A DNA stretch of 64,000 nucleotides. Origin: a virus. Position 1 is the stretch's first letter; every line of letters starts with the position of its first letter. Shown piece after piece: positions 1 to 12,393 of the stretch. Made by a program: the position numbers and the translations under genes. The notes under the pieces were generated by a model. It searched no databases, was not told where the DNA came from, and was given only the letters and a program-made list of their open reading frames with translations. The DNA is taken from the IMG/VR virus record IMGVR_UViG_3300050192_000013, positions 3,705-67,704 of that record, one strand, 5' to 3'.

Positions 1-336
1 CTTATGCGCGGATAACTTGTGCGCAGGTGACTTTGTGGAGTATCGCATTCGTTTCACTAACGGACGCGTGGAATCAGTGGAGTTAATTCCAGAGAGACAA
101 TGGACATGACCGAAGCACAAATCAAATATGAACACCAGAATCATCACATGGCTGAAGGCGCAGAAATGACTCCATCCCAGCTAGTTCAGGACTATGATTT
201 AATCGCGCACGAAGATTTGCGCATCGGCAATATGAGCCGGTCGGCCAGCGGGACAGTCGAAGCGCCAGGGACAAACGTAAAACAGAAGTCTGGACTGAAT
301 AAGTCCATCATGGATGCCGCGTGGGGCCAATTAATA

Positions 337-603
337 GGGAATTATATACATGACTACAGCGAAAAGGACGCTGCTGAATGCAACCGCATGAAGAGAGGGT
401 AGTTACCGAGCAAAAAGAACTGGGCGACAAACTTGTCAAACTGCGCGAGTTCATCGCCTCGAATCCAATCTTTCAGAAACTTCCCCGCGACGAGCAGGAG
501 CGACTGAAAACACAAGAGTTTCACATGTCCATGTACTGGAGGGTGCTTGGCGACAGGATCGGCGAATTCCCGAAGTAGTCCTGTAGTCAAGTATATAATT
601 CCC
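337..603. mobile_element. Non-autonomous IS1595-type cassette (267 bp) carrying one passenger gene
   Basis: TIRs GGGAATTATATACATGACTAC (337-357) and GTAGTCAAGTATATAATTCCC (583-603). Perfect 8-bp TSD AATTAATA at 329-336 and 604-611. No transposase inside. Confidence 0.9.
378..578 (+). CDS. Small phage protein, crAss001_48-like family (passenger of cassette)
   Basis: MQPHEERVVTEQKELGDKLVKLREFI..IFQKLPRDEQERLKTQ..M..Y..VLGDRI matches my recollection of this family pattern. Confidence 0.7.
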   Translation: MQPHEERVVTEQKELGDKLVKLREFIASNPIFQKLPRDEQERLKTQEFHMSMYWRVLGDRIGEFPK

Positions 604-841
604 AATTAATATGGCAGATCATTTATAAGGCTGAGAGCGCCGGTAAGTGGGTCGTGCCAGTCAATCCACGAGGCACGAGTCAAAAGTGTTCGCAGTGCGG
701 CGAAGTTGTCAAAAAGGAATTGTCGGAGCGCAGGCATAAGTGTGCCTGCGGTAGCGACTTGGACCGAGACCACAACGCCGCGATAAACATCCAAAGGCTC
801 GGGATGAGCCTTGCGGGCCTTGCGCCTTCAGAATGTATGAG

Positions 842-862
842 GTAGTTATGTATATAAATCCC
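842..862. repeat. Orphan IS1595-type right TIR overlapping the tnpB stop codon
   Basis: GTAGTTATGTATATAAATCCC has 2 mismatches to the TIR consensus. Its partner is not in the window. Confidence 0.75.
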
Positions 863-1447: not shown

Positions 1448-1696
1448 ATGACCGATCAAGATGAAGGCACACGCCAAGCCGAAGCATTCAATTTAAGCGA
1501 TACCGAATACGAGTTAGAGTGGCTTGCATCGCTACCCGATATAGAACGCGACGTATCGGCCTACTTCTATCGCATATTTTCTCCTTGCTTTGAGTTGATC
1601 CAGGAAGTGCCAGTAAGGACGGAATGCGGAGATACGCTGCGTGTTGATTACGTCGGCAGAGAACACGCTGGAGACCTAAATGGGGGAATTATATAG
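1448..1696 (+). pseudogene. Probable PD-(D/E)XK nuclease-like gene truncated by the TIR at 1684
   Basis: ..FELIQEVPV....LRVDYVG.. motif. The frame runs into the TIR and stops inside it, with no E-x-K motif. Confidence 0.45.
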
Positions 1697-2519
1697 ATGA
1701 CTACACCAAATCAGCAGAATCAGAGGGATAGCCTGTGAAGCGAATCGTCCAGTTTTCCGGCGGACTTTGTTCGTTCTTCGCGGCAAAGCGCGTGGTTGAG
1801 CAGTTCGGAAAAGACGATGTAACCCTGCTCTTCGCGGACACTCTCATCGAGTCTCCGGGACTGTACCGTTTCCGTGATGCCGCTGCTGCGTTTCTCGGCC
1901 TCCCTGTGACCGTGATTGCGGAGGGGCGTACGCCGTGGCAGGTATTCAAGGACTGGGGCGTGAAAGGGTTTTTGGGGAACTCCCGCGTGGACATCTGCTC
2001 TCAAGTTCTCAAGCGCGAATTTTGCCGGGGATGGGTCGCCGGACACTGCTTTATGGAGCCAGTGGTCCTGTATGTCGGAATTTCTTGGGACGAAGGGCGT
2101 ATAGATGAAATTCGCGCCAACTGGCTACCCTGGGCCGTAGAAGCGCCGATGTGCGACCCTCCGTACCTCACCAAGTGCGACATGATTCGGGAAGCTACCG
2201 CGCTAGGCTTGCCGCTGTCAGAGGCATACGCGGACGGATTCTCTCATGACAACTGTGGGGGCGGATGCGTCAAGGCCGGGCAGGCTCATTTTGCGCAACT
2301 CTACAAGATTCGGCCAGCGGTTTATGCGGAGTGGGAGCGCAACGAAGAGGACGTGCGTAAGCATATTGGCCAAGATGTCTCAATCCTCAAAGACAGGAGA
2401 TGTGGACAGACCAAGCCTTTGACGTTGGCGGCGTTCAAGGCACGGATTGAGACAGGCGATTATGACGTTCACGAATTTGGAGGATGCGGATGTGGCGTGT
2501 AGGCAAGTATATAATTCCC
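1684..2519. mobile_element. IS1595-type TIR-bounded cassette carrying a PAPS-reductase-like gene, no TSD
   Basis: Left TIR GGGAATTATATAGATGACTAC (1684-1704), right TIR GTAGGCAAGTATATAATTCCC (2499-2519). Flanks CTAAATGG and GAAGCAAA differ. Confidence 0.75.
1735..2502 (+). CDS. PAPS reductase-like / adenine nucleotide alpha-hydrolase family phage protein
   Basis: N-terminal PP-loop-like FSGGLCS..LLFADT, HDNCGGGCVKAG motif and C-terminal GGCGC. The TAG stop lies inside the TIR. Confidence 0.75.
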   Translation: MKRIVQFSGGLCSFFAAKRVVEQFGKDDVTLLFADTLIESPGLYRFRDAAAAFLGLPVTVIAEGRTPWQVFKDWGVKGFLGNSRVDICSQVLKREFCRGWVAGHCFMEPVVLYVGISWDEGRIDEIRANWLPWAVEAPMCDPPYLTKCDMIREATALGLPLSEAYADGFSHDNCGGGCVKAGQAHFAQLYKIRPAVYAEWERNEEDVRKHIGQDVSILKDRRCGQTKPLTLAAFKARIETGDYDVHEFGGCGCGV

Positions 2520-4970: not shown

Positions 4971-5251
4971 AAATACCACAACAGCCACTCGAATGGATCT
5001 CAATGAATTGCGACTGCAAAAGTGCGCGGCATACAATCCGCTTTTGCTTCGACCCAGACGATGGAGACCTGTACGTCGATGTGCAGTTAGCGCGATGGCA
5101 CGGATTCTTTAAGCGTTGCTGGATTGCTATGCGATACATCCTAGGCTTAACGGATCGGTGCGGACATTGGGATTGCGCGCTGCTGAGTGACCACGCCAGC
5201 CTAATTATCGAACTGTGCGAACGGTCGATTAGTGCAAGGGCGGAAAAGTGA
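4967..5251 (+). CDS. Hypothetical phage protein
   Basis: ATGA-coupled. CDC...H.IRF..D.DDGDLY..V.L...GFFKR.W.A.RYI.G is a common phage motif. Confidence 0.6.
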   Translation: MKIPQQPLEWISMNCDCKSARHTIRFCFDPDDGDLYVDVQLARWHGFFKRCWIAMRYILGLTDRCGHWDCALLSDHASLIIELCERSISARAEK

Positions 5252-6630: not shown

Positions 6631-7635
6631 GTGGGACAAACAACAGGTATCGCCTGGACGGATAGTACGTGGTCGCCCCTCCGCGCGCGCATCCGGCCAG
6701 ACGCGCTAGAAATTGCGGAGCAAAAAGGTTACACGTCGCTCGTGCAAGTTCTGACAGCGCGCAAGCCGAATGGGGATTTAAGGAGTCCTGCCGGTAAGGT
6801 GGGGCCTCACTGCGAGCACGTTTCGCCGGGGTGTGAAAACTGCTACAGCGAGTTTAATGGCAAGCGCTGTCTTCCCGCGAACGGAACCGGCCTACCGTTC
6901 GACCGGCGCTCGCGTGACCTCGTGGAAATCTTCCTTGACGAAAAGATTCTCATGCAGCCGTTACATTGGAGGCGACCGCGTAGAATTTTCGTGAATTCTC
7001 AAACCGATACGTGGCTGGAATCCGTTCCATACGAACTGATAGATAGAATGTTCGGTGTTGCCGCGTTATGCCCGCAGCATAGTTTCCAATTCCTAACTAA
7101 GCGCGCAGCGAGGATGTTTCTATACATGACGGCGCTTCGCCAGGAGGGATGGACGCAAGGATACATCGCCGAACAATACGGACGGCCGGGACGTTTTTTC
7201 CCGACGGAACACGCACTGCCGCTGAATCAATCAGAAAGGATGCGATGGCCGTTGCAGAATGTCTGGCTTGGCATAAGCGCAGAAGACCAACAGCGATGGG
7301 ATGAACGGTCCAAGTGGTTACGGAAGACACCAGCAGCGGTGCGGTTTGTTTCGTATGAACCGGCTCTCGGACCCATTGATTTCGGCGACCTATCCGGCAT
7401 TCATCAAATAATTACAGGAGGAGAAAGTGGACGCGGAGCGCGGCCATCACAACTAGCATGGTATCGTTCAACAATTACCCAGTGCCGGGCTGCGAGCATT
7501 GCGTGTTTTGTGAAGCAGTTTGGCAAGCGCCCGCTCGCTAGATGTCTCCAGTACGCCTGTGAATCCGACCCAGGCCACGGCGCTAACCCGATGGATTGGC
7601 CTAGGGAATATCGCATACAGGAGTTTCCGGCGTGA
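6631..7635 (+). CDS. DUF5131 (phage Gp37/Gp68) family protein
   Basis: TGIAWTDSTW.P...C.HVSPGCENCY...FVNS.TD...FQFLTKR...NVWLGISAEDQ...RFVSYEPALGP...ITGGESG. Confidence 0.85.
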   Translation: MGQTTGIAWTDSTWSPLRARIRPDALEIAEQKGYTSLVQVLTARKPNGDLRSPAGKVGPHCEHVSPGCENCYSEFNGKRCLPANGTGLPFDRRSRDLVEIFLDEKILMQPLHWRRPRRIFVNSQTDTWLESVPYELIDRMFGVAALCPQHSFQFLTKRAARMFLYMTALRQEGWTQGYIAEQYGRPGRFFPTEHALPLNQSERMRWPLQNVWLGISAEDQQRWDERSKWLRKTPAAVRFVSYEPALGPIDFGDLSGIHQIITGGESGRGARPSQLAWYRSTITQCRAASIACFVKQFGKRPLARCLQYACESDPGHGANPMDWPREYRIQEFPA

Positions 7636-8327
7636 TTCCAGAACCACCCACACCAGACTTCGCCGTCGCACCCGTCCGCGTCCTCGTCCAGGACGGCAAG
7701 CCGCTGGTACCCGGCGCGGAGCAGTTGATAGCCGCCAAACAGACCAATCAGCCATTCCCAAACCTCTCACAGCAACGCAAAGGCTTTATCGCTAACTTTC
7801 CGAGCACAACAATAGCGCAGCGGAAGCGAGCGCGGAAGCTCATGCGCCCAGCAGAAAAGCATGACGACCTTGCGCGTCAAGCACTTAGCATAGTCGAAGG
7901 TGGTCAGATCGTGCTCGTGAAACCGGAGGAAGTGTCGGTCGAAGCGTTTCAATCGCGCATCCTTACTTCGCTAAGTCATAGAAAAGATACACGTTCTTGG
8001 AAATTCTCCATGAAATCGCTCGGATGTAACCGCGTGGCGCTGGTTTGCAAGGGGAAATCGGCCAGGAATGGCGCACAAGGCGTTGGGGTATCCGATACTA
8101 CCTCCAGCACCCATCCGATAGCGCCTGAAGCCACCTACGCGCGGGAATCCAGCATTCCTGCGAAGCTCGGCAAGCGCCTGCGCGACCCGAAACCGGATGT
8201 GATTCGCCGTGGGTTGGAAAATCGACGGCAGAAGGCTACGCGGAAGGTGGCGGAACTGGAGATGCGGCTGGAGGCTGAACGCGGGAAGTTGGCGGGGATT
8301 GCGGATTCACTGGGACGGTTAGCGTGA
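7632..8327 (+). CDS. Hypothetical protein
   Basis: 231-aa GTGA-coupled ORF with C-terminal coiled coil. Confidence 0.5.
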   Translation: MIPEPPTPDFAVAPVRVLVQDGKPLVPGAEQLIAAKQTNQPFPNLSQQRKGFIANFPSTTIAQRKRARKLMRPAEKHDDLARQALSIVEGGQIVLVKPEEVSVEAFQSRILTSLSHRKDTRSWKFSMKSLGCNRVALVCKGKSARNGAQGVGVSDTTSSTHPIAPEATYARESSIPAKLGKRLRDPKPDVIRRGLENRRQKATRKVAELEMRLEAERGKLAGIADSLGRLA

Positions 8328-9946
8328 ATTACATTTCCCTATTCAGCGGGATCGACGCCGCATCGGTCGCTTGGATTCCGTTGGGATGGAAGCCACTTCT
8401 GTTCGCGGAGATTGAAAAGTTTCCGTGCGACGTCCTTAAACATCACTATCCAGACGTGCCGAACTTGGGTGATGTAACCGCAGAAGATTTTATTGAACGA
8501 GCGAAAAAGGAACTGAATGGAACAATTGTTGATGTTCTCATCTTCGGAAGCCCGTGCCAAGGATTTTCCGTCGCGGGAAAGCGCCTTGGATTGGATGACC
8601 CGCGCAGCAATCTCGCATTGCACGCCCTTAGAATTTGCCGCGCGCTTGCTCCAACCTGGATCTTATTCGAGAACGTCCCTGGCTTGTTTTCCAGTTGGTC
8701 CGGTGCTCCGCAAAGTCCATCAAGAATGGACGCTGGATTTGCAGACGGGGGAACCGTTGTGCGTGAGTTCATTGAGTCAAGTGACTTCGCCGAGTTCCTT
8801 CGATGGGTTTCGGACATCGGGTATTCTGGCGCATGGACAGTGCTTGACGCTCAATACCGCGACTTGGCGCAACGGCGGGAGCGCGTGTTCTTTGTCGGAT
8901 GTGTTGGAGACTGGGCCGGTCCAGCCGCAGTATTACTTGAGTCGGAGAGCTTGTCTGGGAATATTGCGCCGAGCAGAGAAGCGCGGCAAGGAACTGCCGA
9001 AGGCGCTAATGAATGCGCTAATGCAAGTAGTGAATGGGGGGATGTCGGAAGCCTCTGTGCCAGAGATAGCAAGACAGTCGGAAATCAATTCGTCAACGAA
9101 GGTAAAGTGTTCGCTGCCCCCGAACGATCCATGTGCCTCAACGGGGGGGGTAATAACAGAATAGACGCGGAGTCCGAAACGTTCATCTGCGAAGTCGCGC
9201 CAACTATTGATGCTAGTTATGGACGCCTACAGGGGCAAGACGATCAGCATATCAACAGCGGCGCTGGATTGTTTGTTGCGTTTCAAAATACGGGGCAGGG
9301 ATGGTTCAATGAATCAGATACCGCAGGGACAATCCGTGATTTAAGCGCCGGTGGTGATTCACAGCACTCCAATATTGTAGCCTTTCGTGCCAGCGGACAG
9401 AATGGATTTATCCCCGATGCAATTGCGCCGCCCGATACTACGCAAGTGACCAGCAAAGCGAATCGCAGTAACCCAAAGCAAGGCGACCCGTGTCACACCC
9501 TGGCGAAGGGAGCGGAACCGCCTACAATCGCAATAGGGTTCTACGCCAACGATAGCGGTAACGACGCAGGCCGCGACGTAAGCCCTACGTTACGGTCTAT
9601 GGAACACGGAGGCGGTAATGAACCAGCGGTAGCCTTTCAGTCAAGCCAGAGCGGAATGCGGGAAGTTGAAACTCACGCTACACTTGATGCCAATAACGGA
9701 AGCCGCCGTCACAACGGAGTCGCGCAGGGTATGGCGGTACGAAGGCTTACCCCAAAAGAGTGCGCTAGATTGCAGGGGTTTGGTGATAAATATCTGGATA
9801 TCAAGTATCGCGGGAAACCAGCGGCAGATGGCGTGAAGTATAGGGCTCTCGGTAACTCTATGGCCGTTCCGGTCATCCGCTACATCGGGGAACGGATACA
9901 GATCGTTCATGAATTAAAGAAAGCGGCGTTGGAGCGGCTAGGCTAA
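8324..9946 (+). CDS. DNA (cytosine-5)-methyltransferase with long modular variable region
   Basis: Motif I SLFSGID, IV GSPCQGFS, VI ENVPG, VIII QRRERVF, IX RRLTP.EC.RLQGF, X YRALGNSMAVPV. Confidence 0.95.
   Translation: MNYISLFSGIDAASVAWIPLGWKPLLFAEIEKFPCDVLKHHYPDVPNLGDVTAEDFIERAKKELNGTIVDVLIFGSPCQGFSVAGKRLGLDDPRSNLALHALRICRALAPTWILFENVPGLFSSWSGAPQSPSRMDAGFADGGTVVREFIESSDFAEFLRWVSDIGYSGAWTVLDAQYRDLAQRRERVFFVGCVGDWAGPAAVLLESESLSGNIAPSREARQGTAEGANECANASSEWGDVGSLCARDSKTVGNQFVNEGKVFAAPERSMCLNGGGNNRIDAESETFICEVAPTIDASYGRLQGQDDQHINSGAGLFVAFQNTGQGWFNESDTAGTIRDLSAGGDSQHSNIVAFRASGQNGFIPDAIAPPDTTQVTSKANRSNPKQGDPCHTLAKGAEPPTIAIGFYANDSGNDAGRDVSPTLRSMEHGGGNEPAVAFQSSQSGMREVETHATLDANNGSRRHNGVAQGMAVRRLTPKECARLQGFGDKYLDIKYRGKPAADGVKYRALGNSMAVPVIRYIGERIQIVHELKKAALERLG
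8517..9164 (+). CDS. Overprinted alternative-frame ORF inside the C5-MTase (M.EcoHK31I beta-polypeptide-like)
   Basis: 215-aa +1-frame ORF: QLLMFSSSE.A...SRTS...CLTLN...CSLSDVLETG.V...YYLS..AC.GILRRAEKRGKELP.AL..AL. Confidence 0.6.
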   Translation: MEQLLMFSSSEARAKDFPSRESALDWMTRAAISHCTPLEFAARLLQPGSYSRTSLACFPVGPVLRKVHQEWTLDLQTGEPLCVSSLSQVTSPSSFDGFRTSGILAHGQCLTLNTATWRNGGSACSLSDVLETGPVQPQYYLSRRACLGILRRAEKRGKELPKALMNALMQVVNGGMSEASVPEIARQSEINSSTKVKCSLPPNDPCASTGGVITE

Positions 9947-11030: not shown

Positions 11031-11118
11031 GGTTTCTGCGCCTCCCCGAAAAGAAAGGGAATTACATACATGACTACCCCTAGCTTTTGGCCGCATCGCG
11101 TTTCTTCTTTCGTATCCG

Positions 11119-11676
11119 TCCATGCAACCCGCGTTTAAGAACTGCCCAGACGGACTCGATTCCATTCGTGTGCGCCGCACCGCGTTTGTACTCGCCCGCC
11201 GAATGGTTCACGGCGTCATGCCGGAAGAAAAGGCCGTCCAGGTCGGAGTAAGCCATGTGCTCATCGGTGTACAGTTGCGAACCGACTTCCACATTGGCGT
11301 GGATCTCACCTTGAATGGTCTGGATGGTCCGATCCTCGATAACCTTCGCTACGGTGCGCCCGCCGCGTTCTCGCAAGCCCATGACGGCGACCTTGCCGAC
11401 TGGCCCGCGTCCCATGCGGAGCTTCTTGGATTCGTGCTTGTTCGCTTCCTTGCCACCCACAAAGCACTCGTCGATTTCGACCGTGCCGCGAAGCTTGTCA
11501 ATCTCATCGTCGGAGCCGCAAGCTTCACGGAGCCGGGACAGCATGAACCATGCCGACTTCTGGGTTACACCAATCTCCTTGGCAAGTTGAAGGCTGCTGA
11601 TTCCCTTACGAGCGGTCACCAGCAGATACATGGCGTAAACCCACTTGTGAAGCGGGATATGCGACCGCTCGAAGAC
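11119..11676 (-). pseudogene. IS1595 (ISXO2-like) DDE transposase core fragment
   Basis: VFERSHIPLHKW..KGISSLQLAKEIGVTQKSAWFM..VEIDE..TDE..VNHS..HTNGIESVWAVLKRG. The Zn ribbon and C-terminus are missing. Confidence 0.9.
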
Positions 11677-11746
11677 GCTTTCGACTTCGGTTTCGGACGG
11701 TAGTTCAGCACCAAGTCCGCTATCTGATCCAGTTCGACCGGGGCCT

Positions 11747-11998
11747 TCATGCGGCCTCCTTGCGGTCCACTCGGGTGTGATGCGGATAAATAAGGCTCCA
11801 TTGCCAGCAACCCGAACCGCGCCCGCCAAGACTGCGCTTGACCCATTGCGGTCTTCGCATGGCACAGCAACCAGGGCACGCCTCAGGCTTGATAGGGGCG
11901 TTACATTCGTATTCCATTATCTCCTGTCGCGTGAAGTTAGCGAAGTCCATCTCTATGATTTTGTGCCCGCTGTAATAACACCTTCGTTGCCCGCCCAT
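11747..11998 (-). CDS. Cys-rich passenger ORF inside IS1595
   Basis: Follows the transposase C-terminal piece with RBS AAGGAGG; coupled to the small IS ORF. Confidence 0.45.
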   Translation of the reverse strand: MGGQRRCYYSGHKIIEMDFANFTRQEIMEYECNAPIKPEACPGCCAMRRPQWVKRSLGGRGSGCWQWSLIYPHHTRVDRKEAA

Positions 11999-12139
11999 TT
12001 ACGCAACCTCCTTGCCGATGAGCCGTTTGTACGTGAGCCGCTTGCCGACAGATGCGGCCACGAAGCTATTAAGCCGCGCTGTGGTGTGGTTGCGGACGTT
12101 ACCTTCGTTCAGTCGGAAGGTGAACTCATCGACGTAGCG
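11999..12139 (-). pseudogene. IS1595 transposase C-terminal fragment
   Basis: RYVDEFTFRLNEGN....RL...V...VGKRLTYKRLI; located upstream of the core fragment. Confidence 0.85.
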
Positions 12140-12393
12140 CGGCGCGGAAACGGGCGAAAAAGGCTGCGCGAAAGGCGAAGGGCTAACGCTATGACTTATC
12201 AGCCTAAAGGTAGTCATGTATATAATTCCCAAAAGAAACAGTGCCCGGTCTTGCATTGGCTTAACCTGATGCGTGCTCCATCCTCCAAATTGGGATTGGT
12301 TCGCCCATCGTATCAACTGATTCGCCTCATCATTTAGCAGCCATTCCAAGTGCGCGATGCGTAGCTTAGCCTGCTTCAACTCTTCCTCTGTAG

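Follow-up and report, generated by a model that had tools for sequence, protein, structure and literature searches.

Background

Phage genomes are mosaic, and to our knowledge few mechanisms account for the movement of single accessory genes between them. Among small mobile elements, MITEs are non-coding and multi-copy. The IS1595 family reportedly includes "transporter IS" that carry passenger genes, a term attributed to Siguier, Gagnevin and Chandler in 2009. The ISNwi1 subgroup, which we take to have ends of the form ggnnatTAT, an 8-bp duplication, a length of 1080-1200 bp and passenger-carrying variants, would accommodate both GGGAATTAT and the 1174-bp element described below.

Members of the IS1595 family usually generate 8-bp duplications, have ends starting with GG and encode a zinc finger together with a DDE_Tnp_IS1595 domain (PMC8101967). 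A mobile insertion cassette (MIC) is an IS derivative that lacks a transposase but responds to a cognate one (PMC3129680); the type MIC, going by the citation in that source (De Palmenaer et al. 2004), is the Bacillus cereus cassette MIC231 of IS231. The mycobacteriophage elements MPME1 and MPME2 measure approximately 440 bp, and their insertions leave 6 bp of unexplained sequence on one side and produce no duplication (PMC3029335). IS200/IS605 elements have hairpin ends, lack inverted repeats, insert 3' of a short TAM and make no duplication; the 2026 review that gives these traits lists prokaryotic TnpB with the DDE transposases of ISL2, IS630 and IS1031, not of IS1595 (PMC13565253).

A probable mobile insertion cassette in a peat-soil phage

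We identified a unit of 267 bp (337-603), with two inverted-repeat ends around one small phage gene, in a peat-soil phage window (the whole stretch analyzed, 64,000 nt of IMG/VR record IMGVR_UViG_3300050192_000013). This unit is very probably a non-autonomous derivative of the IS1595 family, that is, a MIC moved in trans. It is classed as a derivative and not as an IS because its only real open reading frame (ORF) is a 66-aa crAss001_48 gene and it encodes no zinc-ribbon and DDE transposase of its own. From the IS1595 family it has the 8-bp duplication and ends shared with elements encoding DDE_Tnp_IS1595. The traits of a MIC are present as IS inverted repeats around a gene unrelated to transposition, the absence of a transposase, flanking direct repeats, and mobility as a unit, the filled and empty alleles differing by exactly the unit plus one duplicate copy.

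Like the IS1595 transporter IS, the unit has ends starting with GG(G), an 8-bp duplication and a passenger gene inside its ends, and its full-length relatives encode a zinc ribbon and DDE_Tnp_IS1595; unlike them, it carries no transposase itself. With MIC231, as far as that element is described in the source given above, it shares IS-type inverted repeats bracketing a non-transposition gene, the lack of a transposase, a target duplication, and presumed movement in trans by a cognate transposase. MIC231, however, belongs to IS4/IS231, whereas the present unit belongs to IS1595, sits on a phage replicon, is much the smaller at 267 bp with a single 66-aa gene, and has ends common to dozens of cassettes whose passengers all differ. 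MPME1 and MPME2 (PMC3029335) are similarly ultra-small, with inverted repeats, one small ORF, and presence or absence between near-identical phage genomes, but their ORF is the element's own, whereas the unit encloses an ordinary gene of phages between the ends of a known IS family. The unit resembles MITEs in its small size, terminal inverted repeats (TIRs), target duplication, and lack of autonomy; assignment to the usual MITEs was rejected, as three-quarters of the unit is coding and it was found only once. Assignment to IS200/IS605 was likewise rejected on account of the 21-bp inverted repeats and the 8-bp duplication.

The kind of element is already known, and the family around it seems undescribed in the literature searched. 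Apparently undescribed features include phage-borne carriage, dozens of single-gene passengers flush with the ends, empty mini-elements, a 21-mer that is identical from one phylum to the next, and the repeated occurrence of tnpB among the passengers.

Structure of the 267-bp unit

The features of the unit and its borders, with the evidence for each, are as follows.

329..336, no strand: left copy of the 8-bp target-site duplication AATTAATA (letters read and direct-repeat search; a single copy in the empty-site contigs)
337..359, plus strand: left TIR, with a 21-bp core at 337-357 and pairing to 359 (inverted-repeat search, motif scan)
364..368, plus strand: putative ribosome-binding site AAGGA, 9 nt upstream of the passenger ATG (letters read, inference)
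378..578, plus strand: passenger gene, 66 aa, crAss001_48 family, function unknown (ORF list, Pfam, PHROG)
581..603, minus strand: right TIR, with a core at 583-603 and 1 mismatch to the left end (inverted-repeat search, motif scan)
604..611, no strand: right copy of the 8-bp target-site duplication AATTAATA (letters read and direct-repeat search)

The left end of the unit (337-357) is the 21-mer GGGAATTATATACATGACTAC, identical to the ends of transposase-bearing elements, and 583-603 is its reverse complement with one mismatch, so that the TIRs measure 21 bp in their core and up to 23 bp with full pairing. The duplication is perfect on both sides, with a prior of approximately 1.5e-5 for an 8/8 match of the flanks. 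The passenger stops only 4 nt before the right end of the unit, and its ORF, for which Pfam gave a significant match, takes up 75% of the unit: the 66-aa product matches PF21825 (crAss001_48) with an E value of 8e-17 over profile positions 2-59 of 61, as well as PHROG 774 (function unknown) with an E value of 5e-14. An opposite-strand ORF of 83 aa within the unit was without support, leaving 378-578 as the sole credible ORF, and a consensus scan of the unit gave no promoter above the shuffled background. The closest homologues of the passenger, 77% identical in locus L168 and 53% or lower elsewhere, are found in phage genomes without such TIRs, and judged by these relatives the passenger is an ordinary phage gene.

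The first-pass annotation had described this TIR-gene-TIR arrangement with its flanking duplication, and every part of it was recovered. It had also looked to copies of the unit at other loci with different duplications, and these did not turn up. No further copy of the 267-bp cassette was identified in the 68.5-kb genome or among 160 fetched loci, a protein-seeded scan of IMG/VR for a second copy returned only TIR-less homologues of at most 77% identity, and the inner junctions of the cassette, searched for twice as exact patterns in metagenome contigs, gave no match.

The interrupted tnpB and its filled and empty alleles

The unit lies within a remnant of tnpB, for which three features were annotated.

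100..336, plus strand: upstream piece of a 5'-truncated tnpB relic, from the RuvC-II region to ...DAAWGQLI (alignment to intact TnpBs)
612..845, plus strand: downstream piece of the relic, from WQIIYKAESAG... to the stop (Pfam Cas12f1-like_TNB, E 3e-21, and alignment)
842..862, minus strand: solo TIR with 2 mismatches, abutting the tnpB stop, taken as the right end of a sibling tnpB cassette whose left part is lost (motif scan; intact TIR-tnpB-TIR units with duplications occur elsewhere, in L072 and L190)

When the unit and one duplicate were removed in silico, positions 100-336 joined to 612-842 gave a continuous in-frame ...DAAWGQLIWQIIYKAESAG.... The restored junction aligns without gaps to ...DAAWGILIWQLTYKAEKAG... 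in the nearest intact TnpBs (L050 and L051), which are 70-72% identical to the relic over its C-terminal piece and have no insert.

We aligned public Logan contigs from runs X1 to X4 to positions 1-1300 of the window. The empty site was identified in a 680-nt contig of X2 and a 547-nt contig of X3, which come from different samples and studies, both of them peat metagenomes. Both contigs join position 326 to 602, skipping 275 bp, that is, the 267-bp unit and one 8-bp copy, and over 462-680 nt of flank they differ from the filled allele by 1 mismatch (X2) and 0 mismatches (X3). Ten letters at the joint are ambiguous, as expected from CC followed by AATTAATA. The filled junctions are both covered in X1, possibly the source sample, by one contig spanning 191-603 and another spanning 574-1300, and the left one is present in a diverged X4 contig (180-439, 9 mismatches) from a permafrost study. 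An exact-pattern search for the empty site in IMG/VR gave no match, the empty allele being known from the Logan contigs only.

Because two peat metagenomes carry the exact empty site with 0-1 flank mismatches, the insertion is real, recent, and polymorphic. Both alleles occur in nature, and the junctions are not an assembly artefact. Misassembly, which the first-pass annotation had named as the outcome that would overturn its reading, is contradicted at contig level by X1 over both junctions and by X4, from another study, over the left one. Repeats do interrupt short-read assemblies, and the TIRs are indeed where Logan unitigs stop, but a chimera formed at a repeated 21-mer would give neither a perfect 8-bp duplication nor restoration of the frame, and we regard this explanation as having almost no probability. 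The claim that the TIR-gene-TIR unit had transposed as a whole with its 66-aa passenger held up on the duplication, the restored frame, and the empty-site contigs. Excision of the unit and one duplicate does restore DAAWGQLI-WQIIYKAESAG in frame, as the gap-free alignment to intact TnpBs shows, and the uninterrupted tnpB allele foreseen by that annotation exists in the X2 and X3 contigs that skip exactly 275 bp, with the qualification that this tnpB was already truncated at its 5' end.

The polymorphism, which is read from contigs and not from raw reads, is by itself compatible with gain and with precise loss alike. Under precise loss, an older insertion would have been removed by slippage or recombination between the 8-10-bp direct repeats, in which case the unit would still be transposon-derived without having been recently active. 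An empty site that keeps exactly one repeat copy is predicted by loss as much as by gain, and the phage contig carries no active transposase. Against this, the flanks of the filled and empty alleles differ by 0-1 bases, a near-identity that points to a young event, and TIRs one base apart around an intact ORF with a full-length Pfam match likewise speak for a young insertion. With these near-identical ends, the intact ORF, and intact TnpB relatives without the insert, gain is favored, and precise loss appears unlikely.

The upstream phage gene ends at position 109, and approximately 230 N-terminal residues of TnpB are missing. The empty-site contig of X3 matches positions 1-326 without a mismatch and shows the same truncated 5' boundary; therefore, tnpB was already reduced to its last ~156 aa before the cassette arrived. 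The target of the unit is a dead tnpB, itself what remains of the right side of a further cassette in this family. An origin of the ends from an IS605-type element was considered and rejected, as repeats of this kind are absent from the nearest TnpB loci (L050-L053) and IS605 makes neither TIRs nor a duplication.

A wider family of cassettes sharing the ends

An exact-pattern scan for the 21-mer returned 41 viral loci in IMG/VR and 38 loci in bacterial MAGs, the latter from phyla including Acidobacteriota, Pseudomonadota, Chloroflexota, Planctomycetota, Verrucomicrobiota, Thermodesulfobacteriota, and Spirochaetota. By pairing plus- and minus-oriented copies of the 21-mer, we counted 34 distinct insertions of 46-4592 bp, all with perfect 8-bp duplications of different targets. 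These duplications are 79% A+T against a background of 43% A+T, a sign of target preference.

Intact transposases of 302-318 aa are the products of the long units, with matches to PF12762 (DDE_Tnp_IS1595, E 3e-44) and PF12760 (zinc ribbon, E 2e-9). Transposase units are bounded by the 21-mer with 0-3 mismatches in L030, L045, L141, L160, L161, L163, and L165, the two Pfam domains being matched on L030 and L045. Intact transposases are also present in peat Acidobacteriota MAGs, for example, in L165 (73% identity).

The short cassettes each carry a different passenger and show no interior similarity to one another. Their passengers include an N6/N4 DNA methylase (L041), a C5 DNA methylase (L043), a PAPS reductase (L033), an ASCH protein (L037), DUF3307 (L013), a marginal DUF6527 (L016, 23.4 bits vs the Pfam cut-off of 23.6), PHROG 12600 (L046), and several orphan ORFs. 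The smallest unit, at 46 bp (L020:1669-1714), has two ends back to back within a perfect 8-bp duplication, AAGCGCTT.

These features bear on a further explanation, in which the repeats are regulatory or recombination modules of phages, similar to the T4-type promoter-stem-loop cassettes, and the gene was swapped by homologous or site-specific recombination. The ends do contain a TATAAT-like sequence, and the boundaries of the cassettes are flush with gene boundaries. Recombination between repeats, however, makes no 8-bp duplications of unrelated targets, and 34 different ones were found; moreover, the repeats are inverted and not direct, and the same ends bound transposase genes. We consider recombination modules very improbable, and the ends are read here as those of IS1595-type elements.

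The exact 21-bp end (L130-L167) was observed in MAGs of at least 8 phyla, and the associated transposases diverge to 43% identity. Full-length units with extra genes occur in MAG contigs, ranging from 1837 bp (L141) to 4592 bp (L147). "Empty" elements of 46-56 bp, made of two TIRs 4-9 nt apart, were observed in L020 and in X3 and X4 contigs (joint 359->581). One 308-bp cassette with one and the same duplication is present both in an IMG/VR phage contig (L012:3889-4196) and in a Candidatus Sulfotelmatobacter (Acidobacteriota) contig (L155:2504-2811), a possible hint to the host of this group of peat phages.

Other ends of the family in the window

With up to 3 mismatches allowed, the window contains 7 copies of the 21-mer, whereas 100 shuffles gave an expectation of 0.00, and chance does not account for this. 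The ends pair as 337/603, 1684/2519, and 11057/12230, in addition to the solo end at 842-862. Two more elements were annotated from these pairs.

1684..2519, plus strand: second cassette of 836 bp, consisting of a TIR, a 255-aa PAPS-reductase-like gene, and a TIR (motif scan; PHROG 424, E 4.5e-38)
11049..12238, minus strand: IS1595-family element at 11057-12230, 1174 bp, with its perfect 8-bp duplication AAAAGAAA (motif scan; Pfam PF12762, E 9e-33)

The 255-aa gene (1735-2502) gave no Pfam match at an E value of 0.01 and is assigned by its match to PHROG 424. The TIRs of this cassette are good and its flanks are unmatched (ctaaatgg vs gaagcaaa); an ORF at 1382-1696 enters the left TIR and does not resume. 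This arrangement suggests an adjacent deletion or recombination between cassettes.

The 1174-bp element has intact ends and a scrambled transposase without the zinc ribbon. No intact transposase was identified in the 68.5-kb record, which is estimated to be 59% complete, and the scrambled gene is its sole copy. The transposase is circularly permuted, with residues 260-305 (12157-12020) preceding residues 68-254 (11679-11119), and its two breakpoints coincide in the protein and lie beside conserved subterminal repeats of approximately 60 nt. Nested insertion, auto-integration, and a tandem dimer were each considered and rejected, as none of them puts the inner sides of the TIRs beside residues 254 and 260. 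No simple transposition or deletion model fits the arrangement; a TIR-like site within the intact transposase gene at the breakpoint is weak (10/21 by eye).

tnpB as a recurrent passenger

Intact tnpB genes were identified between the same kind of ends. The unit at 2068-3245 of L072 (1178 bp) consists of a TIR, an intact 370-aa TnpB (PF01385 and PF07282), and a second TIR, with the duplication AAACACAA, and its tnpB stop lies within the right TIR, as in the window. A scan with this TnpB returned more TIR-bracketed tnpB genes, in L176/L177 (at another site), L183, L188, L189, L190, L191, and L193. The duplication is perfect in L190:1263-2660 (AATTAAAT) and 7/8 in L193:1268-2609. The intact tnpB is the main or only cargo of these IS1595-type TIR units, and L072, L190, and others contain no transposase. 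In a maximum-likelihood tree of 22 TnpBs, the TIR-bearing proteins account for 6 of 8 tips in one supported clade and for 2-3 of 6 in a second.

In the elements other than IS605 for which TnpB has been described (PMC13565253), as in the window, where the target tnpB sits between DDE-type inverted repeats, the gene is not between IS605 hairpin ends; the difference is that the ends here are IS1595-type and that tnpB units occur without any transposase. A text search of the literature for TnpB with IS1595 returned nothing relevant.

In some tnpB units, the left end is followed directly by a strong promoter-like site of the TTGACA-17-CATAAT type and by a small ORF resembling a zinc ribbon. The 191-bp unit L021:2814-3004, whose duplication is perfect, has only the first ~60 codons of tnpB, starting 6 nt inside the TIR, and resembles a tnpB cassette shortened by deletion.

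Proposed mechanism

Mobilization in trans is the best-supported account of the locus, within which the source of the transposase, the route (cut-and-paste or copy-out), and the expression of the passenger are what we infer. An IS1595-type DDE transposase with a zinc ribbon and a DDE_Tnp_IS1595 domain would bind both ends of the unit. Because the only transposase copy in the record is scrambled and the record is an estimated 59% complete, this enzyme would be supplied by a full-length relative in the host chromosome, by a co-infecting phage, or by the missing part of this phage. The unit would have been inserted at an AT-rich 8-bp staggered cut, whose repair would yield the AATTAATA duplication, and the insertion target would have been the already dead tnpB remnant left over from a sibling cassette. 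The passenger has no room for a promoter of its own and is likely expressed by read-through from the upstream phage genes, to judge from the co-orientation of all its neighbors and the lack of a promoter-like site above background.

Implications for gene exchange among phages

The locus provides a clean natural before-and-after pair for the move of a single gene, for which the responsible enzyme family can be identified. The family comprises at least 34 independent insertions with different passengers, several of them typical anti-defense or host-takeover genes. If it is general, a transposase of hosts or of other phages would be an agent of gene exchange between phages. New accessory genes could be sought by way of the ends because the content between them would be under selection to be carried. 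With the tnpB cassettes, prokaryotic TnpB would have a third kind of vehicle, one with DDE-type ends and no resident transposase.

A broader reading is offered tentatively, and we hold it to be less probable than not. According to it, IS1595-type ends would form a gene-shuttling platform of phages and not mere decayed ISs: pairs of identical ends, including the empty minis of 46-56 bp, would acquire single accessory genes flush with the ORF boundaries and move among phages and hosts of many phyla. In this scheme, tnpB might be a stable partner, with the TIR replacing the right end of IS605 and the flank beyond the TIR tip supplying the guide.

Nested and recombinant family members

Two further loci contain more than one pair of ends. 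In L011, an inner unit (7127-7602) lies within a TIR of an outer one (7107-8583), with CTTGAATA inside the outer TIR, and the outer unit splits a distant IS1595-type transposase near residue 248. The 2593-bp unit at L045:4688-7280, with the duplication CTTCTTTG, has a second left end at 5206, ahead of which the opening 12 codons of the transposase are repeated; this points to recombination among members of the family.
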